Shown one piece after another: positions 49,167 through 64,000 of a DNA stretch of 64,000 nt; positions within the stretch are counted from its first letter, which is position 1; every line of letters begins with the position of its first letter. Where the stretch lies: contig CAWCKW010000003.1 of NCBI GenBank assembly GCA_963796285.1, positions 192,001-256,000 of the forward strand, read 5' to 3'. The stretch comes from Nitrospirota bacterium. GTDB lineage: Bacteria; Nitrospirota; UBA9217. The notes beneath the pieces are model-generated. The model was not told where the DNA came from. It saw only the letters and a program-made list of their open reading frames with translations, and made no database searches. The position numbers and the translations under genes are program-made.

Positions 49167-49991
49167 GTGTCTTTAAAAAATACAGCATGGGGATTTGCCC
49201 CCGGTAATGATGCGGGCAGGCAGATCAAATCCGCGCCACTGGTGATGAGAACACTCATGGTCGCGATCCTGCTGGCGTCCCTGGTTGTAACCTTCTGGAG
49301 AAACGCGACATATCGGACCGAAGTTTCCCTTTGGGAAGATGTTGTGGCTAAGAGCCCGGGAAAAGCCAGGCCCCACAGCAACCTGGGAGGCCCTCTCGTC
49401 GCAGCCGGCCGCTATGACGAGGCGTTACGGGAATTTTACGCCGCGCTGAATATCGACCCCGGCTACGCCGAGGCCCATTACAATCTCGGGAACACCCTTG
49501 GCAATATGGGAAGATATGAGGAGGCGGAGCGTGAACTCCGGACCGCAACGAATCTCGCACCCCGTTACTTTAAGGCATACCTCTGCCTCGGATCGATCTA
49601 TGCAAAAACGGACCGTGATGAAGAAGCGATGCGTGAATTCGATCGGGCCGGAGCGCTGAACCCGAAAGACCCCGGCACGTATTATAATCGCGGGGAACTG
49701 TACGCTCGACGGGGACGGTACGAGGACGCGATTCGCGAATATCAAGAGGCGATCCAGAGATCACCTGAGTTCGTGCAGGCCAGGAATAATCTCGGCGCAC
49801 TCTATGGAAAACTGGGGCGCTATGAATCAGCGCTTGAGGAGTTCAAGGCCGCGGTCCGCCTTAATCCCGACGATATCGGCGCGCATTACAACCTTGGGCT
49901 GATCTATGGAAAACTGGGCCGTCCCGAGGAGGGCGCCCGGGAATTCGAGGAGTTCAGGCGATTGAATGCCCTTCGGGAGCGGGTTCCGTGA
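49167..49991 (+). CDS. Membrane-anchored TPR protein (resembles the C-terminal half of TMTC-like proteins); start uncertain
   Basis: One TM, TFWRNATYRTEVSLWEDVVAKSPGKARP, then about 6 TPR units. Confidence 0.82.
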   Translation: MSLKNTAWGFAPGNDAGRQIKSAPLVMRTLMVAILLASLVVTFWRNATYRTEVSLWEDVVAKSPGKARPHSNLGGPLVAAGRYDEALREFYAALNIDPGYAEAHYNLGNTLGNMGRYEEAERELRTATNLAPRYFKAYLCLGSIYAKTDRDEEAMREFDRAGALNPKDPGTYYNRGELYARRGRYEDAIREYQEAIQRSPEFVQARNNLGALYGKLGRYESALEEFKAAVRLNPDDIGAHYNLGLIYGKLGRPEEGAREFEEFRRLNALRERVP

Positions 49992-50941
49992 AGACTGGTA
50001 CTGCGATCGAGCCGAAAAAAGCAGGCAAGGGTGAACTGGCCATCCTGTTCGTTCTGGGATGCGTCGTCCTTTTGCTCGCCGCCGCGTCATTCATGCGAAA
50101 CATGACCTGGCGCAGCGATCTCACTCTGTGGGAGGATGTGATCAGCAAAAGTCCGGACAGGACCCGGGCGCATTACGCGGTCGGACTCTTCTACCAGAAT
50201 CAGGAGAATTTCGCCGAGGCAATCAGGGAATACCAGACGGTCCTCGGTCTGGATCCCTCTTATGACAAAGCGCGCGATAATCTCGGCGTGGTCTATGGGA
50301 AGCTGGGCCGTTTTGAGGAAGCCAAAGAGGAGTTCCTGAATGTCCTTCGGCAAAATCCACGCGATGCAGCTGCGCACGGCAATCTGGGCGCTGTCTACGT
50401 AAAGCAGGGCCGTCTGGACGACGCGCTGGCGGAATATCGAAGCGTTCTTGAGTCCGACCCCGTCGATCCTGCGGCGCATTACGGGCTGGGCAACGTCTAC
50501 CAGGAAATGGGACGCATGGACGAGGCTGTCCGGGAATATCAGACAACACTGGCGCTCAAGCCCGACAATGCCGAAGCGAGAAACAACCTGGGCATGCTCT
50601 ACGGAAGCCGGGGCAACTGGACGGCAGCCATACAGGAGTTTCAGGCGGCAATACGTTATCAGCCCGATGGCACCGAGGCATACAACAATCTGGGGATTGT
50701 CTATGCAAAGCAGGGCCGGTTCGATGACGCCGTCGGTATGTTTCGGCAAGCACTCCTGCATGGGCGGGAAAGCGCTGAAATTCACAACAATATAGGCATG
50801 GTTTACCGTCTTGCGGGGCGGTATGAAGACGCCCTCACGGAGTTCCGGACTGCCCTGCGGATCGACCCCGGCCATGCGGCGGCACGCTCTTCCCTGGAAC
50901 AGTTGTCGCAGGTGTTGCGGGAGAAGAACCTCTCGCGTTAA
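49988..50941 (+). CDS. Membrane-anchored TPR protein (paralog of the previous gene)
   Basis: One TM, SFMRNMTWRSDLTLWEDVISKSPDRTRA, then about 7 TPR units; GTGA overlap with the previous gene. Confidence 0.85.
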   Translation: MKTGTAIEPKKAGKGELAILFVLGCVVLLLAAASFMRNMTWRSDLTLWEDVISKSPDRTRAHYAVGLFYQNQENFAEAIREYQTVLGLDPSYDKARDNLGVVYGKLGRFEEAKEEFLNVLRQNPRDAAAHGNLGAVYVKQGRLDDALAEYRSVLESDPVDPAAHYGLGNVYQEMGRMDEAVREYQTTLALKPDNAEARNNLGMLYGSRGNWTAAIQEFQAAIRYQPDGTEAYNNLGIVYAKQGRFDDAVGMFRQALLHGRESAEIHNNIGMVYRLAGRYEDALTEFRTALRIDPGHAAARSSLEQLSQVLREKNLSR

Positions 50942-51019
50942 TCTCGAATCGGGACTGCTTTTCTCAGAGAGAGTCTCCGCAGGCCGGCAACCTCCGGGGA
51001 GAAGAAAGGACAGGATTTC

Positions 51020-53120
51020 ATGCCCGTCATACAGCGGAGCATCCACGACCCGGAGGATCATTCCCGAACGGGATTTTTCGACAGTTATCTTTTCCCTGTT
51101 CTGCTGCTGATTATTGCGGCACTGGCCGTGTATTCCAACACGCTTCAGGTTCCGTTTCAGTTCGATGATCCCACCAATATTACGGACAACCCCCTGGTCC
51201 GGAACGTCCGTAATTTCGAAAATTGGGATGTCCTGATGCAGCCGAGGTCGCTCACCAATCTCACCCTTGCGCTGAACTTCCGGTTCAACGGTACGGCGGT
51301 TGCCGGCTATCACGTCGTCAACATCCTGATCCACCTTATCAACGCTCTGCTCGTTTACGCGCTCGTTGCGCTGCTCTTCCGGACCCCCGCATTGCTCCAG
51401 TCTTCATTGAAGAAGCACGCAGGCGTCATCGCCCTTTTTGCGGCCCTCCTCTTCGTCACTCACCCGGTCCAGACGGGCGCGGTCACCTATATCGTCCAGC
51501 GCCTGGCCTCTCTCGCGACGCTGTTCTTCCTCGCCAGCGTCTCGGCCTATCTGAACTCGCGGCTTGCCGCTGAGGACCGCCGGTCGAACAGGGTCCGGTA
51601 CTTGTGGTACGTGGTTGCTCTCGTCTCGGCGGTCCTTGCGATGAAAAGCAAGGAGACGGCGTTCACGCTTCCGATCATGCTATGTTTGTGCGAGTTCCTC
51701 TTCTTCACCGGTGGTTTGCGAAAAAGGATCGCTTTTCTGCTGCCCTTTCTCCTGACCATGCTGATCATCCCGTTCTCCCTGCTCGGGACGGGAAAGCCGC
51801 TTGGCGATATGGTGGGCGATGTGAGCAGAGTCACGCGGCTCGAAACAAACCTGCCGAGAACAGAGTATCTTTTTACCGAATTCCGGGTCATCGTCACGTA
51901 CCTGCGGTTGCTGCTGTTCCCCGTGAATCAGAATCTTGACTATGACTACCCTGTCTATCAGTCCTTTTTCGACGTCCCTGTGCTTTTATCCTTTCTTCTC
52001 CTGGCATCCATTTTCGGGTGGGCGCTCTTCCTTCTCCACCGTGACCGGCGTTCTCCTTCCGAAGGCAGGCTTGTCGCCTTCGGCATCCTCTGGTTTTTCA
52101 TCACCCTCTCCGTGGAGTCGAGCGTCATCCCCATCGCCGACGTGATCTTCGAGCACCGGCTCTATTTGCCGTCCGTGGGGTTCTTTGTCGCAGCAACTGC
52201 GCTCCTGTTCCGCGGCGTCGGGAAGCTTCGGCTCCGGCATGCGGTGACGGCGCTCATAGCCGCGCTGTCGCTGGCTGTTGTCGCCTTCGCCGGCCTCGCC
52301 TATGCCAGAAACACCGTCTGGCAGAGCGAGGTGAGTTTGTGGCAGGATGTGATCCGGAAAAGTCCGATAAAGGCGCGGCCCTATAATGGATTGGGTCTGG
52401 CCTTCTTGAATTTGCACGAGTATGACAGGGCGATCGAGTGTTTTGCCAGAGCGATCTCGCTCAATCCTTCCTATGGAACGGCGTTCAATAACATCGGGAG
52501 TGCCTTTTATCTCAGCGGGAGGTACGACCGGGCGGTTGAAGCGCACACCCGGGCCATCGCGTTGCAGCCCGAAAATGCAATCTTTCGAGACAACCGCGGT
52601 CTTGTCTTCGCAGCAATGGGCGACCATGAACGTGCAATGAATGATTACGACAAGGCAATCGCCCTGAACCCGTCTTATGCCATGCCCTATCACAACATCG
52701 GTGTCGTCCTTCACCGCCGCGGCCTGTATGGGGAAGCCATTGAGCGCTACACAAAGGCCATCACGCTGGACCCGGCCAACAGCACCTTCCGGGGCAACCG
52801 CGGCCTGGCCTATGCCGAGATCGGCGATTATGGAAAAGCCATAGCCGATTTTACGCAGGTTATTTTTTTAGATCCCGATAATGTTCAGGCCTACAGCGGA
52901 CGGGGAGAGGTGTATCTCCGGCAGCAGCGATATAGCCGAGGCGGATACGGACCTTACCGAAGCGCTGTCTCTCGATCCGGCCAGTGCCGGTCTCCTGGTG
53001 CTTCGCGGCACAGCACGCGAACGGGCTGGACAACCATCCCAGGCACGCACCGACTTCCAGGCGGCCTGCGACAGGGGTAGTGTTGAAGGATGTAACGCAT
53101 TAAAACGATTAACGCATTAA
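51020..53120 (+). CDS. TMTC-like GT-C membrane glycosyltransferase with TPR tail; indel near 52935
   Basis: FQFDD first loop, YHVVNILIHLIN, LFVTHPVQT.AV.YI.QR, MKSKE, FEHRLYLPS and RN.VWQSE.SLWQD motifs, then TPRs. The last repeat continues in ORF 52881..53120. Confidence 0.85.
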
Positions 53121-53197
53121 CATTTTTTCCCCGGTTCCCCTTCTATTTTATGTCTCCCCCCTAAGACCGCTATATCCCCAGAGTAACACCAGACGCT

Positions 53198-53211
53198 TGG
53201 TGAATTCACCA
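53198..53211. promoter_or_regulatory. Candidate enhancer (UAS) for the sigma54 activator
   Basis: Perfect 14-bp palindrome TGGTGAATTCACCA, 75 bp upstream of a -24 box, separated from it by an AT-rich spacer. Confidence 0.55.
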
Positions 53212-53286
53212 GGTAAAATAGCTGCCCGAATTCCCCAATTATTATTAAGTTGCTGTAATTAATTAATTTTTTATTTTTTTTCAAGC

Positions 53287-53302
53287 TGGCATGGCCATTG
53301 CT
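53287..53302 (+). promoter_or_regulatory. sigma54 (-24/-12) promoter of the cytochrome operon
   Basis: TGGCAT-GGCCA-TTGCT, close to the TGGCAC-N5-TTGCW consensus. Confidence 0.85.
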
Positions 53303-53391
53303 ATATAGATAAGACAGAAACAAGGAACAAAGTTGATTTACAGGTTACCTCTTTAGAATTTGTTTTCTGGAATCATCGGTTCGGGGTTGCT

Positions 53392-54355
53392 ATGAAAAAG
53401 CGCGGATACAATAATTATTCCACCTCGATCATCATTGCCGCATGCTACCTGGTTGCTTTGGGCAACTATGAACAGGCGCATGCGGTGAATGTAACCTTCA
53501 TGTACACCTTGTCCGATTTTACCGGTCCCATTATATATGACGGAGCAACGGTGTATGTCGATGGGGCCCGGAATGAAGTCTATGTCGTTTCCAAAGGCAT
53601 TGTGAAGGTTTTCAACGACAACGGTATGGAGATCTACCGATTCAACGACGGCGATGAGTTGGGCGCGATCTCTTCTCTTGATTTCGACCAGCAAGGCGAC
53701 ATCTATGCGCTTTCCTATAAGTACGGCTATCTGCAGGCATCCTACAATATCCTTCGCTGCAATTATCGCGGAGAAATACAAAGCACTATTGAAATAAAAG
53801 GGGTCCCCTCAAGCTTCAAGGACTTCATGCCGAGATACATGGCGTACCGTGACCGTAAGTTCTATCTTGCGGACCCATCAAGCCTGAGGATCGTGGTTAC
53901 GGACATGAGCGGTCAGGTCCAGAAAAGCTTCGATTTAATATCCATTCTTGAGCTCAAGGAATCGGACAGGCAAGACACCGAGATGGGTGGATTCAGCGTG
54001 GATAAGGACGGAAACATGCTGTTTACCACGCCAACACTGTTCAGCGCGTCCGTACTATCTCCGGACGGGAAAGATCGCTTCCTTCGGTCAGGCAGGAAGC
54101 ATACCGGGAAAATTCGCGAATATCTCCAGTATCATACGCGACAATCGAGGCAATATCCTGGTGGCGGACAAACTAAAAGACGTGGTGACCGTTTTTGACA
54201 AGAATTTTAATTTCCTGATGGAATTCGGTGGACGAGGAAACGCGCCGGAGAATATTGTAATCCCCATGAACATGGCCCTGGACAGCGACAACAGGCTTTT
54301 TATTACACAGTCCAGCAGCAGAGGGGTAAGCGTTTTCAGGCTGCTGTACAACTGA
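53392..54355 (+). CDS. Exported NHL-repeat beta-propeller protein; indel near 54071
   Basis: Signal peptide ending in AHA-V; blades EVYVV, DIYAL, FYLAD, SVDKDGN. After the frameshift: FGQAGSIPGKF, ILVADK, FLMEFGGRG, LFITQ...RGVSVF. Confidence 0.82.
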
Positions 54356-54486
54356 AAGCCATTAGTAGAAGAAGGAGGTGATAACCCAAAGAGAGAAGAA
54401 CGTAACCAGCAATTGCAGCAGGCAGTACGCAACAGCAAGTAGTGCAGCATCTCAAACAGGCATGCCGGTATGACCGGCACAGCCAT

Positions 54487-54569
54487 CCTCCGTAAATAGT
54501 AAACCCATCGCAAGGTGGGGACACAAAGTCGACAGATCCCGGAAACAGGACGGCCGGGTCTGCCGGAGC
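54487..54569 (+). ncRNA. GEMM-I (c-di-GMP-I class) riboswitch, A20 variant predicted to bind 3',3'-cGAMP
   Basis: P1 CTCCG/CGGAG; AATAGTAAA-CCCATC-GCAA-GGTGGG-GACACAAAG; P3 ending GGACGGCCGGGTCTGCCG. GT/AC compensatory pairs at the P2 base. About 20 nt upstream of the cytochrome ATG. Confidence 0.85.
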
Positions 54570-54590
54570 AAATTAACATGGAGGATGTAA

Positions 54591-55857
54591 ATGAAAATCG
54601 TCAAATTTAGCTTTATCCTCGTTGCTGTGCCGCCGTAGTATTCGGCCTCAGCGGCATAGCTTCGCGTTCCATACCGGCGGCGTCGCCGAATGTACTGGTT
54701 GCCACAAAATTCACGATGGTCAACAGGCGCCAACCGTTGCAGGTTGCCGGTGACGAGTTCCACCTGCCTGTCCTGCCACGCGAAATGCGGCCAAAGGCAG
54801 CTACCACATTGCCACGACATCCGCAGACCAGGCCGGCGGCCCCGGCACCTGGCCCGTTAACATACCCCGGGCGGCGACTTCGCATGGCTGAAGAAAGACT
54901 ATCTTCTTGCCGTACGCAGCGACCACAACCACGAACGATGGCTATACCCATGGCCATAACATCGTTGCGGCGACTATGGTTTTGCGCGGATCCGGTCAAC
55001 ACCACCGCTCCCGGCGGCACGTTCCCAGCCGGCAATCTCGCCTGCAACAGCTGCCATGACAACCATGGTCGTAACCGTATTAGCTCGAACATGACCGTAG
55101 CCACGGGCGGCGCGCCGATCATCGGCTCCGGTTCGTACAGCACCAGCGTCATGCCGGCAGCCGGCCAGGCAGTCGGTGTGTATCGTCTGCTCCGCGGACT
55201 CGGCGATGTCCATGCATCGGGCGATGACCTTCGCAGCGATGATCCGCCGTCGTTGCCGTTGCACCGGGCACCTACAACGCGGTCGGAAGGCACTCACTGC
55301 ATACGCGTGTTGCCTACGGCTCCGGTATGTCTGATTGGTGCGCAACCTGCCATCCTGACATGCTTACCGCTACCGCCGCCAAGCACTCGCACCCGGCAGG
55401 CGCTGACGCGTAAGTTCCGGCACGATCAGATGAACAATTACAACGCCTATAAGATGTCGGGCAACATGACCGGCGCGTCGGCGACAGCATACAACTCACT
55501 GAGTCCCGTTCGAAGAGGCGGCACGGGCGGACGGCTGAGCAATTTCATGTCACCCTTAAAGTCCATGGCCAAAGAACGATCGGCGCACCCGATGGGGCGC
55601 GGTATGACGAATTCTCAGGTCATGTGCCTCACCTGCCACGGGCGCATGCCTACAGGCATTCACCCACATGACCAGATGGTTTAACGACAGCGAGTTCATC
55701 GGTCACCAACAGCCTCTATCCGGGTACGGACAACTCGCGGAAAGAGCTACTCCCTGGCTATAATGAGCAGACTATGCCCTTTACTACGGCAGGACCGGTA
55801 ACTCAGTTTGCCACCTATCAGCGGTCTCTCTGCAACAAGTGCCACGCGAAAGACTAA
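54591..55857 (+). CDS. omcS: OmcS-family hexaheme cytochrome c, heavily frameshifted (assembly damage or pseudogene)
   Basis: GGAGG RBS and ATG 54591. Reading across frames: FHTGGVAECTGCHKIH, CLSCH, PGGDFAWLKK, GHNIVAADY, APGGTFPAGNLACNSCHD.HG, AVGVYRLL, RVAYGSGMSDWCATCH, CLTCH, YQRSLCNKCHAKD*. Six CxxCH motifs; both termini match G. sulfurreducens OmcS as I recall its sequence. Confidence 0.85.
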
Positions 55858-55877
55858 TGTTTGCTAGGTTATCAACT

Positions 55878-55914
55878 AAAGGGAGGGCCGAGAATTGCCG
55901 GCCCTCCTTTTTTT
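55878..55914 (+). terminator. Intrinsic terminator between the two cytochrome genes
   Basis: GGAGGGCCG / CGGCCCTCC stem followed by T7. Confidence 0.8.
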
Positions 55915-55998
55915 AACAACATATTGAAATTTGGCGTTGATCGTGGTAAAATATCTGCACTTTTCTCGATACATGGAACAAGCGGGTAATTCACCCTC

Positions 55999-57287
55999 AT
56001 GAAAATCATCTAAACTAATCCTGCTTTCGTTGCGCTCATGATGATTATCGGCACAAAGGACCGGATTGCGTTTGCGTTTCACGGGGGTGGCGTCGGCGCC
56101 TGCGATGCCTGCCACAGTATGCATAACGCTTCACCATCCGCCGGAGGAGCACTCTTCAAGGCCTCGGATCCCAGCTCGGTCTGCCTTAATTGCCACGAGC
56201 GGGTAGGCGACATGGGTCCCACGAACTTTCACGTAAGCACGTCGGTTGCCGATATGCCCCCTGGCTATCCGCCAAAGCAGCTCACGCCGGGCGGTGACTT
56301 TGGCTGGCTGAAAAAGAACTATTCTGGCTCCCGGGCGCCTCGCAGCTTCCGATGTACAGCTATGGCGACCGGCATGGCCACAACATTGTGGCGAACGATT
56401 ATTCCTATTTTCCCGATGCGACAAAGGTGAGCGCCCCGGAAGGGAACTATCCCGCCGCGGACCTGACGTGCATCAGCTGTCACGACCCGCACGGAACTAT
56501 CGCAGGGATTCGACAGGCGCCATCAACGCCTCAGGAGCCCAGATCATGGGATCGGGTTCCTTTGCATCCAGTCCCGATCCCCAGCCGGGGATTGCCGTAG
56601 GCGTGTACCGGCTTCTTGGGGGAAGGAATTATCAGCCGAAATCCGTGAGCGGAAACTTCGCTTTCTTGAACGACCCGCCCGCGGCCGTGGCGCCGGACAA
56701 GGCACAACAGATCGGAATCCACGGCCCAGACGCGCGTGGCCTATGGCGCGGGAATGTCCGAATGGTGCCAGAACTGCCATACGACCATGCATACGATCGC
56801 GAGCACGGCAACGCCTACGACGCCGCCGACCCATCCCGTAGGGGGCCTTGCAAAGCTGGGCTCCACGATTTCGAACAGCTACAATGCCTACATCAAGAAC
56901 GGCGATCTCACCGGCAGCATGAACACGTCGTTCCTCTCCCTCGTTCCGTTCGAGGAAGGGACCACGAATTACGCGGCGCTCAAGTCCCATGCCAAAACGG
57001 ATGACTCCTATCTTTTCGGACCCGATGCCATCTCTTCGCAGGTGATGTGTCTTACCTGCCACCGGGCCCATGCCTCGGGCTGGGACGAGGCAACTCGATG
57101 GAATGCCAATACGGACTATATTGTGTACAACGGGTTCTTTTCCCAGGACAGCCAACCATATCAGCCCTACGGCCAGGGCCGGACGGAAGCTGAGGCGCAG
57201 CAGGCCTATTACGCCATGCAGGCAACGAAATTCGCGGTAAACCAGGATACGCTCTGCCACAAATGTCATTCAGGGACGCTCCCATGA
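55999..57287 (+). CDS. Second OmcS/OmcT-family hexaheme cytochrome c; several indels
   Basis: AFA-FHGGGVGACDACHSMH, CLNCH, TPGGDFGWLKK, GHNIVANDY, CISCHDPHG, YQPKSVSG, MSEWCQNCH, LVPFEEGT, CLTCHRAHASG, CHKCH. Assembled from ORFs 56038, 56352, 56468 and 56736. Confidence 0.88.
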
Positions 57288-58702
57288 CCAGGATATTCTC
57301 TTCCATTACTTCAGGTATCATCTTTTTCGTTTTCGTCCTGGCGGGATGCCGGACCGTCCCTGTGCAGACCATGCCTCCGCTTGAGGATGAAGGCGAGGTG
57401 CTGATCTATCTCCAGCCTTTTCCGGCCGAGGCCGTGGCGCTCCGGTTCACCCTCTCGTCGATCTCCGTGCTCCGCGATGACGGCACGGAATTCCCCCTCG
57501 AGCTTTCAATAACCGATTACTCGGGCAAGAGCATGGCCCGACAGAGACTGATCGCATCGGGGCGACTGCCGGCGGGGCGGTACACCGGTGTTCTCGTCGG
57601 CGCCGGGAGCGCCGTCCTGAAAAACGAAGACCGGACCGAGACGAACCTGATCGTGCCGGAGGCGCCCCGGAAGCAGCAGTTCCTGTTCATTGTGGAGAAA
57701 AAAAAGGCGCTCCTCATCGCGCTCTCGTTCCAGGTTGCGGGATCATTGCAGGAAGGGTCCAATTTCTCTCCTTCGTTCGAGGCCACGGTCCCCACAAGGC
57801 CGCTTGACGATCTGACGGGATACCTGTCGGACAGCGGCGATAACGCGGTCGTGGTTTTCGACAAACTCAGGATGCAGGCGACCGGCGTCATCGCGACCGG
57901 AAGCGGTCCCGGAGCCGTCGTCATCGATACGCGGTCCAGGAAGGCCTATGTTTCCCTGTCCAACGGCGACGCCGTTGACGTCATCGACATGACCACCGGA
58001 TCCATCCTCAACAGGATCACCCTCTTCGGGGGAGACGAGCCTCAGGAGCTTCTGCTCACGCCGGACGGTCAGACCCTGCTCGTGGTGAATGCCGGCTCGG
58101 ACTCGGTGAGCTTTATCGACACGAACTCCCTCGTGGAGCGTGCCAGGGTCGCCGTCGGCCGGCGCCCCCGGTCCCTGTTGATGGACCCGACGGGCAAGAG
58201 AGTGTTTGTCTTCAACAGACTGTCGAACACCATATCGGTCATCGATCTTGCTTACCGCTCTTTGAGCAGCACCATAACCACGGGGCTGGAACCTCTCCGG
58301 GGGCAGTTCAACCGGACGGGCGACAGACTGTACGTGATCCATGCCCAGTACCCCTATTTGTACGTCATTGATCCGTCGTCATTCTCCGTTCTCCAGCAGC
58401 AATTCATGGGGACAGGCATCGTTTCGCTCAAAATCGACACGCGGACCGATCTGCTCTACCTTTGCAAAAAGAACGAATCGGTGATCACGGTCTACAATCT
58501 TTTTACCTTTACTCCGGTTGCATTTATCCCGACCCCGGGCACGGTGGAGTACATGACCATTGATAATGTCACGAATAACCTGTACGCAATTGTGCCGGAA
58601 CAAAAGGTCCTGATGATCATCAATCTTTTAAACGGGAAGACCGAAGGCGAGATTGACGTGAATCGGCAGCCGTCGTGGGTGACCATGACGGGGGAGCGAT
58701 AA
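57284..58702 (+). CDS. Lipoprotein with N-terminal beta domain and YncE/YVTN beta-propeller
   Basis: Lipobox LAGC; repeats KAYVS...DAVDVID, TPDGQTLLVVNAGSDSVSFID, VFVFNRLSNTISVID. ATGA coupling to the cytochrome. Confidence 0.85.
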   Translation: MTRIFSSITSGIIFFVFVLAGCRTVPVQTMPPLEDEGEVLIYLQPFPAEAVALRFTLSSISVLRDDGTEFPLELSITDYSGKSMARQRLIASGRLPAGRYTGVLVGAGSAVLKNEDRTETNLIVPEAPRKQQFLFIVEKKKALLIALSFQVAGSLQEGSNFSPSFEATVPTRPLDDLTGYLSDSGDNAVVVFDKLRMQATGVIATGSGPGAVVIDTRSRKAYVSLSNGDAVDVIDMTTGSILNRITLFGGDEPQELLLTPDGQTLLVVNAGSDSVSFIDTNSLVERARVAVGRRPRSLLMDPTGKRVFVFNRLSNTISVIDLAYRSLSSTITTGLEPLRGQFNRTGDRLYVIHAQYPYLYVIDPSSFSVLQQQFMGTGIVSLKIDTRTDLLYLCKKNESVITVYNLFTFTPVAFIPTPGTVEYMTIDNVTNNLYAIVPEQKVLMIINLLNGKTEGEIDVNRQPSWVTMTGER

Positions 58703-58703
58703 G

Positions 58704-60979
58704 ATGGGTTGCGCAAGGAGATCAGCGACCGCAACGGGCCGGGCGGCAGCGTGGACCGGGGGATTCATTGTCAGCTTGTTTTTTTTTTGGTCGCCCCGGC
58801 CGGCCGTGGCCGATTCGATAACCGGCCACGCCGATCTGATCTATACAAGGACTAACTCAGTGTCGGAAGACCCCACGGGAAACCAGCAAAACACGGAAAG
58901 CCGGGGGCTTAATCAGATCTACACCCTGGCCGCGGACAAGATCCTGCTGCCGAATCTGAAGCTCTATGCGAGCGGCATTTTTCAGCAGAATGCGTCCGAC
59001 TCCATAACGAATGGGGAGAAAACATCGTCAACGACGGTCCTGACAAGACCGTATCTCGATCTGACCCTGCGGTCGTCGCCCTTTTCCGGGGGAGTGAACT
59101 ACAGCAAAGTGACGATCGAAACAAGGACTGCCGGCTCCCCCCGGATACCGCTTATTAGCGAGGCCTACAACGGCTTCCTGGGCTGGAAGCCCTCGGAGCT
59201 GCCATCGCTCGACATTAGGATGAATCAAACAAAAAATTACGACCAGGACCGCGTCCAGATCAATACGGAGACCAGAACTGCAAGCGTAAGCTCGGACTAC
59301 TCCCCCGTGAAGACCGTTCATTTGCGGTACTATGGGAACTATACTGATCAAAAAGACCTGCTCGGGGGCAACGAGACGACATCCATTGGACACGATGGAA
59401 GGATCGATTACGGCGACCAGTTCTTCCGCAACCGGCTCTCCCTGACCGCGAGCGGGGAAGAAGCCTACTCGACGACCAGGACCTCGACGGCAACCGGCCA
59501 GGGTACCGTCAGCCAGCAGGTGTTTGCGATCCAGGGTCTGTCCCTGAACACCTTCGACGTCCAGGGACTTTCCCGCATTCAACTTGCCGATGCCTCGTTC
59601 CTGATCGACAATGTGCAGAACGGGCCACGGAACGACAGCAACAATATCGGTGCGAGCCTCTACCCGCAGGACACGACGCCACGGAATATCGGTCTGCAGT
59701 TCGCCGTGCCGAGCGAGGTGAACACGGTCGATGTCTGGGTGTATTCCGTCCATGATACGAAAAATCCCGACACGACGCAGGATTATCTGACAGCCGCCGT
59801 GTCCGGCGCCTATACCTGGGCGGTGTACACGAGTTCGGATAACATCACCTGGAGCCTCTATCAGTCGGGCGTGCCCGCAACCTATACCCCCTTGGCAGGC
59901 CAGCTCGGTGTGGGAAAATTCGAAGTTACCTTCCCGAGCGTGACCTCGCAGTATCTCAAGGTGGTCGTCACTCCCATCGTGCCGTCAGCGGCGGGAACCG
60001 AGGGGCAGAGTTTTCCCGGCGTGTATCTGGCCGAGCTCCAGGCCCTGATCTCCACCTCGGCCGCAAACGCACAGGGTCAGCACTCTGCGAAAACGCAGAC
60101 CCTGAACGTAGCGGCCAAATACACCATCCTGGAAAAGCCCTTCTTGTCCTACGACTTTTCGTATTTTGAAGTTCAGTCGGAGTCGTTCCTTTCCATCACG
60201 AGAAACTCAACCATGTCAAACGGCCTTTCATACAGCCAGAAATATAACACGGTCTTTTCCGGAGGCGCGGGAGTACAACGGATCGACGAGAACGGCAGTG
60301 ATCCGAACAGCCGCAGGGTCATCTATCAGTTGAGCACATCGCTCATGGCGGTCCCCCTGCCCACGCTCCACCACAGTCTTTCCTACAGCTATCAGGACCA
60401 GATATCAGCGGAGGGGGACAGTTCGAGTAATTCGGTGTATATGACGAACGCAGCAGACCTTTATAAGGGCGTCGCCATATACGTGAACGGCGGGGAGACA
60501 TGGGCTGTCGATATAAACCATGAGAGTTCGACATCGGTCCAGTACTCATACGGCTTTACTCTGGCTCCTCTTAAAACACTGTCGATCACCGGTTCCTCCA
60601 CCTATTCCAGGTCCATTTCAAGTACGTCTGTCTATTACTCGCGGAGCGACACCCTCGGCGTGGCCTACTCCCCTTTTACCACAATGTTTATAAGTGCGTC
60701 CTGGACCACGCAGGACGAAACCGCCCATCACGACAGGCTTCAGAACTATTCCTTTAGCTGGTCTCCTTTCCCCGGCGGTGACCTTGTATTCAATCTCGCC
60801 TATCTGGAGACCGTGCAAATGCAGAACAATGCCATCCAAAAGACTCTCCAGGAGTCATTGCGCTGGAATATCAATCGAAAATGTTCGTCCAGACCGGCTA
60901 TGCTGACATTACTGAGAATTCCGATCTCCAGCGCACGCTGGAAAGAACATTTTCAGCGGAGTTAAATATAGTGCTCTAA
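58704..60979 (+). CDS. Large predicted outer-membrane beta-barrel with an inserted soluble domain; indel near 60880
   Basis: Signal peptide ending in AVA-D; many amphipathic Ser/Thr/Tyr strands. Adding one A restores ...KMFVQTGYADITENSDLQRTLERTFSAELNIVL* (stop at 60977-60979). Confidence 0.75.
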
Positions 60980-61305
60980 GGGGTAGTTCAAAAGTTCTAT
61001 GAAAACCAGTGAGGCAAATATGAAACCACACCCTGCACTCGCGGTTCCACTCGTAAACGCTGCGCGCAGGCAGTGTGCACTGAGGAATGCTCGGGGGGAA
61101 CCTGAACGCATTGAGCTTTCTTTCAACATGATACACAGTGCTCTCATGGTTGAAGAGTCAAGAGGATGATAAAAGGCGCAAATAAGAGGAGGATCACAGA
61201 GGGGGAGGCGATGCCAAGGACGTTTATATCCCTTAGATTCAAGCAGTTCTCAGAGAACTCTGTGGTTCGATTTTGACATTACGCTCTAGGGGAGAAGGAG
61301 GGTTC

Positions 61306-61872
61306 ATGTTTTTCCGGAAAATCGTATTGATCATGATGATCGCCGGCGTTGTCGGCTGCGGCCGGACGACATCAGATGTCTTTCGGGATCAGGCCATGGA
61401 TTTCGGCTTGATCCAGACCGTTGCGGTTATGCCCTTCGCGAACCAGACGCGGGAACAGACCGCGTCGGACCGCGTTCGGGACGTTTTTATCAACAGACTG
61501 CTGTCCACCGGGGGGGTGTATGCGCTCCCGATCGGCGAGGTGAAGCGGGGAACGTCTCGTGCGGGAATCGCTGAACCCACAGCCCCCTCTCCGGAGGACG
61601 TCGTAAAGTTTGCCGGTATCGTCAAGGCTGACGCCGTGATCACCGGTGACGTGAAAGAATACGGCGAAGTGCGGTCCGGCACTGCCAACGCGACCATGAT
61701 CTCCATAAGCATGCAGATGATGGAAGCACAGACAGGCCGGGTCGTCTGGTCCGCATCCTCAACACGGGGCGGTGTCAGCATGAGCGACCGTCTTTTCGGT
61801 GGAGGCGGAGAACCCATGAACATTGTGACCGAGAGAGCAGTAGATGATATCATCCATAAATTGTTCAAATAG
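61306..61872 (+). CDS. DUF799/GNA1162-like (CsgG-fold) lipoprotein
   Basis: AAGGAGG RBS; lipobox VVGC; VAVMPFAN, ADAVITGDVKEYG and EAQTGRVVWSAS motifs. Confidence 0.82.
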   Translation: MFFRKIVLIMMIAGVVGCGRTTSDVFRDQAMDFGLIQTVAVMPFANQTREQTASDRVRDVFINRLLSTGGVYALPIGEVKRGTSRAGIAEPTAPSPEDVVKFAGIVKADAVITGDVKEYGEVRSGTANATMISISMQMMEAQTGRVVWSASSTRGGVSMSDRLFGGGGEPMNIVTERAVDDIIHKLFK

Positions 61873-64000
61873 ACGCTGTAGGCTCCTCATCGCCGCATGT
61901 TTGGTCCTGTCGGGGTGCGCCGGCGTCAATCATGCGGTGCCGACGAATCCTTCCGGGCAACGGCATCTCAGCATCGCCGTGTTCCCGGTAGAGAACAAGA
62001 GTGCTGTCAAAGCGCCTCTTCGAGAGATCCAGCAAGCGATCGTGAAGCGACTGGAGTCTACAGGGGCTCGCTATCGTTGATGAAGAGGCGCTCAAGCGGA
62101 CCCTGGACAAGCACCGCGTGCGTTATCTCGGTGGACTGGACTCCTCGGTGTCCAAGGCCCTGCAAGAGGAAGCAGGAGCAGATGCGGTACTGATCACCTC
62201 GCTGGAACTGTACAACGAACTGGCCCCTCCCCGGATCGCCCTTCTGTCCCGACTGGTCTCTACAGGGCCCAGACCGGAGATCCTCTGGTCCGACAGCGTG
62301 GGACTGGCCGGAGATGAAGCTCCGGGCCTGCTCGGCCTGGGTCTGATTAACGATCCTAAGGTCCTGAGAGAAAAGGCCGTCGGAACGCTGACAGGCTCCC
62401 TTGCCGCCTTTTTATCGGGCGAGAAAATCGAGTTGGAGGGCGGAAGAAAGAGCTATGCGCCGAAGATAAAGTTCCGCTCCTCTTCTGTCGGCTCTGATCT
62501 TCTGGAGAATGACGTCAATTTTGTGGACAGGACGTCGAGCGGCGACGATCGAAAAGGCCGTGCGCGCATTGCCGTGACGCTCACCTCCCCCGGTAAAGCC
62601 CCGGTTACGGTTGAGTATGCCGACGGGAACGGAACTGCTTCAACGGGGAAGGACTATGAGCTCAGGGGAAACACGCTGACCTTCGCCCCCGGCGAGACGA
62701 GAAAAGAGATCGAGATCGAAGTGAAGTACAACGCGGTTTACAAGGACAACAAGACAGTTAACCTCATTCTGAAGAGTGCGAAGGGTGCAGCTCTCGGCAG
62801 CACGACCGTGCATACGTATACCATCGTGAACACGGTCCCCCCGCCGACGGCGTCGTTTGCGTCAGCGAGCCAGCAGGTGAAGGAGACCGAAGGTCCTGCG
62901 ACAATGCTGGTGGAGCTGTCTGCAATATCGGGGAAGGACGTGACGGTCCCCTTTACCGTGAGCGGGACGGCAAAGACGCCGGGTAATTACACGATCACGT
63001 CGAGCCCGGTAGTGATCAAGGCGGGCGCGAAGAGCGCAGGGATCGTGGTAAGCCCGGTGGACGACAAGATCAGCGAAGAGGACAAAACGGTAGTGGTGGT
63101 CATGGGCGTGCCAATGAACGCGACGCAGGGGAAGACGACGGAAGGCGTTGTGACCATCGCGGACGCCGATCCGAAGCCTGCGGTGGGGTTCACGGCCGCG
63201 AGTTCGAGCGGGGAAGAGAAGATAAGTCCGGCGCGTCTCGAGGTATCGCTGGGGGCAGTGAGCGGCAGGCAGGTAACGGTGGAGTACGCGGTCACGGGCG
63301 GCACGGCGGTTCGGGGGAAGGATTATTCGGTGAAAGAAGGCAGCCTGACCTTCGCCCCCGGCGAGACAAAGAAGGAGATCGAGCTCGGCATCGGAAACAA
63401 CGGGATCTACGACGACAACAAGACGGTGGCAGTGGGACTGAAGAGCGCGCAGAACGCCGTACTGGGCGGGACTGCAACACACACCTACACCATCGTGAAC
63501 ACCACACCCATGCCCGACGGTGGCGTTCATGCACGCGAGTTCGAGCGGGGATGAGAAGACGAGTCCTGCCCGGCTGGAGGTGTCGCTCGGGGCAATGAGC
63601 GGGAAACCGGTAACGGTGGAGTACGCGGTCACGGGCGGCACGGCCGTTCGGGGGATAAACTACACATTGAAGGACGGGGCACAGACCGTGACCTTCGCCC
63701 CCGGGGAGACGGTAAAGACCGTCGAGATCGGGGTCAAGGATGACGGGCTGAATACGGATAACAAGACCATCGAAGTCGGCCTGAAAAATCCGAAGGGTGC
63801 TGTTCTCGGAAACACGACCATGCATACCTATACCATCCTTGACGCAGACCCGATGCCGACGGCGTCGTTTGCGTCAGCGAGCCTGCAGGTGAAGGAGACC
63901 GGGGGTCCTGCGACAATGCTGGTGGAGCTGTCTGCGATATCGGGGAAGGACGTGACGGTGCCCTTTACCGTGAGCGGGACGGCAAAGACGCCGGGTAATT
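61844..64000 (+). CDS. Lipoprotein with a DUF799/CsgG-like domain followed by at least five Calx-beta domains; frameshifted, runs off the window end
   Basis: Lipobox LSGC, IAVFPVENKS, then GADAVLITSLELY...EILWS after an indel near 62065. Repeats VTVEY...GTA..GKDY...LTFAPGET.KEI...NKTV.. . Second indel near 63515. Confidence 0.8.
62843..64000 (+). repeat. Intragenic direct repeats encoding Calx-beta units
   Basis: 62843-62988 versus 63855-64000 differ at 5 of 146 positions by hand comparison; about 63175-63510 and 63515-63850 form a second similar pair. Confidence 0.85.

Follow-up and report, generated by a model that had tools for sequence, protein, structure and literature searches.

An osc-type companion gene set beside two OmcS-family cytochrome genes in a Nitrospirota genome

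Does a bacterium of the Nitrospirota carry a working counterpart of the omcS-companion (osc) system of Geobacter sulfurreducens, when both of its candidate subunit genes are broken by frameshifts in the assembly? The question is raised by the last part of a 64,000-nucleotide stretch of DNA (the window; assembly GCA_963796285.1, contig CAWCKW010000003.1, positions 192,001 to 256,000), in which a first-pass annotation had recognised two hexaheme cytochrome genes, two propeller genes, a large beta-barrel gene and two lipoprotein genes on one strand, and had proposed that the organism builds conductive filaments. The open reading frame (ORF) list places all cluster genes, from 53392 to the window end, on the + strand, as do the coordinates given below unless stated otherwise. 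Full-length homology to OmcS, together with colinear synteny with Geobacteraceae, establishes an OmcS-family locus with osc-type companion genes. On balance, our analysis favours the view that the locus is a Nitrospirota copy of the osc system which would work as proposed below, the explanation of its frameshifts as consensus errors included.

The family membership of the two cytochromes was established by three-frame translation and by alignment with a frameshift-aware aligner written for this analysis. Cytochrome 1 (54591..55857) and cytochrome 2 (55999..57287) each encode the predicted six CxxCH sites, though these are scattered across three reading frames: CTGCH, CLSCH, CNSCH, CATCH, CLTCH and CNKCH in cytochrome 1, and CDACH, CLNCH, CISCH, CQNCH, CLTCH and CHKCH in cytochrome 2. 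Both also keep the mature N-terminus FHxGGVxxCxxCHxxH (FHTGGVAECTGCHKIH in cytochrome 1, FHGGGVGACDACHSMH in cytochrome 2), which is preceded by a signal peptide, of the Sec type in cytochrome 1, and aligns to residues 1-16 of OmcS. The last histidine of this motif is equivalent to His16, which in OmcS ligates a heme of the neighbouring subunit. In phmmer searches, the in-frame pieces of cytochrome 2 matched OmcS (6ef8) over residues 229-405 (E 6.4e-47) and 1-94 (E 4.1e-23). Against its full-length relative P0001, cytochrome 2 is identical at 369 of 429 positions (86%), with five single-base frameshifts and no stops, and P0001 itself covers OmcS residues 1-405 (E 1.4e-125). For cytochrome 1, an intact ortholog in a related genome (L006:8581-9849) covers OmcS residues 1-407 (E 1.1e-93), and cytochrome 1 itself could be aligned solely by reading through its frameshifts against orthologs spanning this same range. 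The corrected proteins thus retain their heme sites and a full-length alignment to OmcS, with the caveat that cytochrome 1 leans heavily on the correction.

The two cytochromes belong to different branches of the family. We computed a FastTree phylogeny of 117 OmcS-family ORFs from the loci described below, in which support is local and Shimodaira-Hasegawa-like only and in which the window cytochromes were entered as read-throughs with an X at each break. The tree puts cytochrome 2 among 28 rows that form a clade with support 100 and comprise Nitrospirota and Geobacterales copies adjoining the propeller gene; L026_9929 is one of these rows. Because this clade includes the Citrifermentans bremense copy, cytochrome 2 is assigned to the OscC (GSU2501) type; as judged from position and tree, it is this copy, directly 5' of the propeller, and not an OmcS ortholog. 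The clade of cytochrome 1 (support 98) has eight rows, all of them upstream copies, which come from Nitrospirota and from a single Deferrimicrobia genome. A third OmcS-family paralog is present elsewhere in the genome (G000:C3:280614-281729, - strand); it is intact, 394 aa long and groups with a basal clade. Relative to the family model it lacks positions 169-201, some 30 residues, and further genomes of the host's family encode this short type as well.

The genes around the cytochromes match the osc companions in kind and order. The gene 5' of cytochrome 1 (53392..54355), delimited from ORFs and an ortholog alignment, had been called an NHL propeller; the label is carried by weak Pfam matches (DUF5128 6-bladed propeller, E 0.0016; SBBP) and by orthology to intact genes of 319-331 aa in relatives. 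It is identical to the 331-aa ortholog at L006:7352-8347 in 173 of 334 positions, with one frameshift near 54067, and occupies the place of the NHL gene that precedes the OmcS-like genes in relatives. Downstream of cytochrome 2, and overlapping its end, an intact gene in the OscD position (57263..58702) encodes a YncE-like beta-propeller lipoprotein (PF21783, 4.6e-11; lipobox LAGC), which shares 257 of 479 residues with its L008 ortholog and has no frameshifts. The OscE position (58704..60979) holds the large outer-membrane beta-barrel. Its 753-aa ORF, which has no Pfam family, was modelled by AlphaFold2 with a mean pLDDT of 87.1 and 27 long beta-strands; a beta-sandwich domain is inserted at residues 268-436, and with the frameshifted tail we count about 28 strands. 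Foldseek matched this model only to generic outer-membrane barrels, the best being MtrB (6r2q_B) with a TM-score of 0.38. We also placed on the window the short-read contigs of four public metagenome runs, which are 88-95% alike to it and therefore derive from relatives or other strains. At the barrel gene frameshift (~60876), these relatives' contigs add a G behind 60879.

Two lipoprotein genes complete the set within the window. The first (61306..61872, OscF position) is intact and encodes a PelC/GNA1162-like protein (PF05643, 1.1e-9; PF13036, 1.5e-8) that is identical to its L008 ortholog in 132 of 188 positions, with no frameshifts. Its AlphaFold2 model (pLDDT 88.1) has PelC as best Foldseek match (5t0z_A, E 5e-10, TMt 0.72). 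Both lipoproteins had been described as CsgG-fold-like, which for the first is only loosely right: its model is nearest to PelC, GNA1162 and LpoB, with CsgG at rank 40. The second (61844..64000, continuing past the window to ~C3:257313; OscG position), defined from ORFs and Pfam, has a PelC-like N-domain with weak similarity to the family of the first (hhalign probability 60%, E 8.6e-5), followed by Calx-beta repeats (Pfam, 7.3e-40). Alignment to L008 places its frameshifts at ~62057 and near 63520-63554. Taken together, the predicted structures would suit a module resembling a channel. Between the barrel gene and the first lipoprotein gene lies a 310-bp repeat element (60972..61281, strand unassigned). 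It is absent from relatives, as contigs of three of the four runs join 60971 to 61282, and a search of the window's own genome gave 20 matches to it. The repeat is flanked by GCTCTA(A/G)GGG-like direct repeats, and its core (61029-61071) has a very high metagenome depth and many loose ends.

After the second lipoprotein, which is completed past the window edge, the same strand encodes a SurA-like peptidyl-prolyl isomerase (PPIase; OscH position). Next comes a giant multiheme cytochrome, whose two pieces match Paired_CXXCH at 1e-150 and 1.1e-94, and then a second NHL protein. This arrangement is shared widely. We searched one genome per species for OmcS relatives and kept the best 80 of 522 stretches; many of these 80 loci end at contig edges. 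The first 16 were metagenome-assembled genomes (MAGs) of Nitrospirota, followed by Geobacter, Geomonas, Citrifermentans, Desulfuromonadaceae, Anaeromyxobacter, Rokubacteria, Deferrimicrobia, Acidobacteriota and others. The propeller was found at 54 of the 80 loci, the barrel at 53 and the first lipoprotein at 50; all three were present at 45 and colinear at every one of these (45/45). At 21 of the 80 loci the set was complete as far as the PPIase and giant cytochrome; among these are the loci of Citrifermentans bremense R1, Geomonas limicola, G. diazotrophica and G. silvestris. The best-segment identities between the window's proteins and those of Geobacteraceae were 40-41% for the propeller, 27-29% for the barrel, 54-59% for the first lipoprotein, 33-37% for the PPIase-like protein and 54-55% for the giant cytochrome.

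These results agree with what has been published on Geobacter and its relatives. The window resembles the G. sulfurreducens osc cluster (GSU2504-GSU2493) in its hexaheme genes, propeller lipoprotein, barrel, two lipoproteins, PPIase, giant cytochrome and NHL gene, and its gene order follows that of the published cluster in the form it takes in Citrifermentans bremense and three Geomonas species. For instance, G. bremensis possesses a GSU2501-like gene followed by an eight-gene block corresponding to GSU2500-GSU2493, which has been tied to the maturation and secretion of OmcS (PMC12977616). Within the osc operon, OscH has been assigned to folding, OscE-G to secretion and OscD to morphology (PMC13194489). 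The window differs from this cluster in having two cytochrome genes instead of omcS, omcT and oscC, with an NHL gene 5' of both, in the long Calx-beta repeat tail of its second lipoprotein, in the frameshifts of its assembled genes and in its host.

Unlike the osc cluster, the window belongs to a member of the Nitrospirota. All named matches of the genome's RpoB were Nitrospirota, with 90% and 87% identity to uncultured members of the phylum and 68-69% to Manganitrophus, Nitrospira and Thermodesulfovibrionales. By this sequence marker, the host genome is Nitrospirota and not Geobacter. The first-pass annotation had expected a host outside the Geobacter relatives to be a novelty, which it is not, since published work already reports OmcS genes from Nitrospirota MAGs (PMC8478452, PMC11312239) and, of 401 sampled Nitrospirota genomes, 38 encode a family member, 25 of them among the 63 genomes of the window's own family.

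The sequences around cytochrome 1 suggest how its expression may be controlled. A GEMM-I (c-di-GMP-I class) riboswitch aptamer (54488..54568) precedes the gene, as had been predicted; it scores 41.1 bits with RF01051, above the gathering threshold of 35, and no other part of the 64 kb matched Rfam. We compared it with the Rfam model and with ten relatives' aptamers. An adenine occupies the equivalent of Vc2 G20, before the G-U/A-C closing pairs, in both the model alignment and the relatives' alignment; the mapping of model position 10 to Vc2 G20 is by our own count. The equivalent of A47 is also an A, so the aptamer is not a GGC variant. A local search favours RF03167, at 39.4 bits under its gathering score of 59. 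The best Rfam family switches between c-di-GMP-I and c-di-GMP-I-GGC with the search mode, and several relatives exceed the gathering score of the GGC model despite an A at position 47.

Relatives share this control element in part. Aptamers lie 5' of the cytochrome 1 orthologs of L006, L008, L010, L012 and L013, and the cytochrome-1-upstream aptamers of L006, L008 and one L012 copy likewise have A20. G20 is found in the NHL-upstream aptamers of L006 and L008, in one L012 copy and in L010, L079 and L046, and no above-threshold aptamer was detected in L024, L026, L039, L040 and L050. The second, G20-type aptamer 5' of the NHL gene in the close relatives (L006:7255-7334, L008:7239-7318, L012:4658-4737) distinguishes them from the window, where none was found at 53050-53450 with E values up to 1. 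The G20A change is the signature of cyclic GMP-AMP (c-GAMP) recognition, which may leave an aptamer bispecific and does not by itself prove selectivity (PMC6140456); the Geobacter omcST riboswitch, for instance, binds both c-GAMP and cyclic di-GMP (PMC6456294). With its aptamer directly 5' of an OmcS-family gene and its A at Vc2 G20, the window resembles the GEMM-Ib (c-GAMP or bispecific) riboswitch of Geobacter omcST (PMC6140456, PMC6456294).

The annotated strong ribosome-binding site was found as GGAGGA, 4 nt 5' of the ATG at 54591. In the ligand-free minimum free energy fold (-40.2 kcal/mol, z -3.1), the Shine-Dalgarno region AUGGAGGAUG (54578..54587) is paired with 54484-54493, the 5' strand of P1, in a 10-bp helix, and therefore we infer a candidate translational ON switch. 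Unlike the Geobacter omcST riboswitch, which acts through a terminator, the expression platform of the window thus looks translational, sequestering the ribosome-binding site, and its ligand is a predicted one. The gene is followed by the expected intrinsic terminator (55882..55914), a GC-rich hairpin of the form GGAGGGCCG...CGGCCCTCC then T7, read from the sequence letters and also listed in a scan; relatives' contigs join on opposite strands at 55858/55911. Cytochrome 1 is accordingly bounded as a separate unit, gated by the riboswitch and ended by the terminator. A consensus scan gave a promoter-like site 5' of cytochrome 2 (55924..55952; TTGAAA-17-TAAAAT with a TG extension), which matches the consensus at 10 of 12 positions as a pattern only, such sites numbering 6 against 5.0 expected in shuffles. 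No RNA run was found for expression among seven public runs.

We propose, by analogy, a working model of how these parts act. Two secreted six-heme cytochromes of the OmcS family would be made in the periplasm, where the SurA-like PPIase encoded just past the window may aid their folding. An outer-membrane module, comprising the barrel of about 28 strands, the two PelC-like lipoproteins and the propeller lipoprotein, would then move the cytochromes outward. Outside the cell, the subunits could stack head to tail, with the N-terminal histidine (His16) ligating the heme of the next subunit, and the resulting continuous chain of hemes would serve extracellular electron transfer. The A20 of the GEMM-I aptamer is a c-GAMP-type or bispecific signature, and binding of a cyclic dinucleotide would probably release the ribosome-binding site of cytochrome 1. 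This gene is its own unit, ended by a strong terminator, and we take its product to be the abundant filament subunit. Cytochrome 2, of the OscC/GSU2501 type, would be co-transcribed and start/stop-coupled with the assembly genes, and is a candidate for a minor, priming or anchoring subunit. The proposed module is reminiscent of the PelBC exporter (PDB 5T0Z, 9H80), in which a ring of PelC lies under the PelB barrel, in that a PelC-like lipoprotein gene adjoins a large barrel gene; the likeness is one of predicted models. Unlike PelBC, the cargo would be a heme protein and not a polysaccharide, and the barrel, with about 28 strands by our count and its inserted beta-sandwich, is far bigger.

A number of observations weigh against this model. 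As assembled, neither cytochrome gene is an open frame, so neither could be translated, and single frameshifts are also present in the NHL, barrel, second lipoprotein, PPIase-like and giant-cytochrome genes, as would be expected of a decaying island. The 310-bp repeat sits inside the operon, and the aptamer has an extra base near 54560, scoring 41 bits where those of relatives score 56-62. The ON logic and the nature of the ligand, moreover, are predictions from sequence. OmcS genes are patchy, with members in four of the genus's eight genomes and 25 of the family's 63, and frequent loss of OmcS is described in the literature, with both loss and gain in Geobacter (PMC12977616). Homology was measured on other Geobacteraceae, G. 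sulfurreducens PCA lying outside the best 80 loci. The clade of cytochrome 1 is separate from the upstream copies of Geobacteraceae, another difference from the osc cluster, and filament formation has been demonstrated for OmcS of G. sulfurreducens alone.

The nature of the frameshifts bears most directly on the model. Cytochrome 1 has about 18 frameshifts against distant references and 23-26 against the intact L006 and L008 orthologs, with one or two doubtful stops, and at least one additional compensating pair was seen by eye around the CHRAHA motif. The five of cytochrome 2 all lie before 56706, that is, five in the first 710 nt and none in the last 580. The indels define a zone, at ~54.5-56.7 kb, which is spatial: it covers the spacers and breaks off inside cytochrome 2, at 56705. 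Against the window, the relatives' contigs place indels at 56005, 56028, 56324 and 56704, which are exactly four of the five placed frameshifts of cytochrome 2, with one more each in cytochrome 1 (54657) and the barrel gene (60879). They also differ by indels at the non-coding positions 54560 and 54568, within the aptamer, and 55871 and 55956, in the spacer, omitting one base at 54560. These contigs demonstrate that relatives are intact; they say nothing of intactness in the window's own strain, which is a further point on the side of caution. Between cytochrome 2 and the contigs, substitution divergence amounts to ~5-7%, against 6-8.5% for its intact neighbours, the heme sites and most family-invariant motifs persist despite about 20 indels in cytochrome 1, and among the 401 sampled Nitrospirota genomes only that of the window has several stops in its OmcS-family matches. 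Because the zone is spatial, the heme sites survive, divergence is not raised and such stops are unique to this genome, we think it likely that the indels at 54.5-56.7 kb are consensus errors of the assembly rather than decay. On the same side we count the open rpoB and rpoC genes, the propeller and first lipoprotein genes free of frameshifts, and the lack of any in-frame stop in cytochrome 2. In that case the cell itself would probably have an intact system.

The same evidence bears on the possibility that the island is truly decaying in this strain, with real mutations, cytochrome pseudogenes and a filament that is no longer made. At least eight island genes have one or more frameshifts, the repeat, missing in relatives, is inserted between two genes of the operon, the aptamer has gained a base, OmcS genes are found in just four of the eight genomes of the genus, and loss and gain are known in Geobacter (PMC12977616). 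In addition, rpoB (1337 aa) and rpoC (1381 aa) are open in the same assembly, and therefore the assembly is not poor in general. However, some 20 indels in 1.27 kb imply a long time of neutral evolution, yet all six CxxCH sites and most motifs are kept with only one or two doubtful in-frame stops; the zone takes in spacers and halts within cytochrome 2 instead of following genes; and cytochrome 2 is no more diverged than its intact neighbours. We thus regard decay as unlikely. Still more improbable, in our estimation, is that the indel zone is real or reflects population heterogeneity, so that the riboswitch-gated subunit gene would be a locus of fast turnover, partly carried or recently inactivated, and the A20 aptamer would point to c-GAMP control of extracellular electron transfer outside the Geobacterales.

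Several candidate explanations and aids were tried and set aside. A hypervariable cytochrome 1 that spoils the consensus finds no support in the comparison of L006 and L008, which are 75% identical there and 70-88% in the neighbouring genes; the gap in contig cover over 54955-55616 may simply reflect the window's own indels. Homopolymer errors do not account for the pattern, as only 56005 of the four contig-placed indels of cytochrome 2 falls in an A4 run. The public runs give no pointer to a habitat, their word shares with the window being small (0.05-0.08) and the contigs those of relatives. The same-genus loci L089 and L090, at 67-74% DNA identity over the cytochrome genes, were of no help as a closer reference for cytochrome 1, and an ORF-coverage profile was uninformative as a frameshift detector at 54% G+C, with spurious long ORFs.

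Granting consensus errors and intact genes, we are left with the question of whether the cytochromes polymerise. The two proteins resemble OmcS (PDB 6EF8, 6NEF) in their six CxxCH sites, in the N-terminal motif with the His16 equivalent and in the end-to-end alignment of their intact relatives; unlike OmcS, for which filaments have been seen, they are known from genes alone. They could instead be monomeric or surface-bound carriers that the companions export or anchor, an arrangement closer to a porin-cytochrome conduit. In keeping with this, cytochromes 1 and 2 lie outside the clade of Geobacteraceae upstream copies, a giant multiheme cytochrome is encoded later in the operon, and the top TM-score match of the barrel, a weak one (0.35-0.38), is MtrB of the Mtr porin-cytochrome complex. 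OmcT, GSU2501 and OmcJ are reported to be of unknown role, and OmcS itself to be the only one in Geobacter known to polymerise (PMC12977616). However, both copies retain the N-terminal histidine by which OmcS coordinates the neighbour's heme, both align with OmcS from end to end, and the companion set is the one tied to the maturation and secretion of OmcS filaments (PMC13194489, PMC12977616). Non-polymerising cytochromes are a possibility that we hold to be doubtful. The filament itself, which the first-pass annotation had ascribed to this organism, stays a matter of inference, both subunit genes being broken in the assembly and polymerisation in Geobacter being known for OmcS only (PMC12977616).

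The flanks of the cluster have features of their own. Further downstream on the same strand are a family-2 glycosyltransferase, on this side of the cluster, and four tetratricopeptide repeat (TPR) proteins. TPR proteins with N-terminal membrane domains flank the cluster at 49988-53120 of the window and at L004:7582-16743, and the TPR gene at 51020-53120 has a frameshift close to its end. Genes for glycosylation and TPR proteins have been reported next to OmcE clusters (PMC13712944), of which these flanks are reminiscent. The giant multiheme cytochrome (L004:3191-6483) has 13 + 8 Paired_CXXCH stretches over two frames, with at least one frameshift, and an NHL protein lies 3' of it, as in the Geobacteraceae clusters.

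The indel zone causes gene callers to miss both cytochromes, and a survey of electron-transfer potential based on called proteins would list the genome as OmcS-negative. The machinery has been the subject of a 2025 paper by Shen et al. (Cell Chem Biol 32:239), whose title reportedly terms it 'widespread and ancient'. The locus is one more Nitrospirota example of a system already called widespread, and by itself it changes little. The occurrence of an A20 aptamer 5' of an OmcS-type gene, and of a G20 aptamer 5' of the NHL gene in relatives, is a hint that cytochrome filaments may be under cyclic-dinucleotide control beyond Geobacter.

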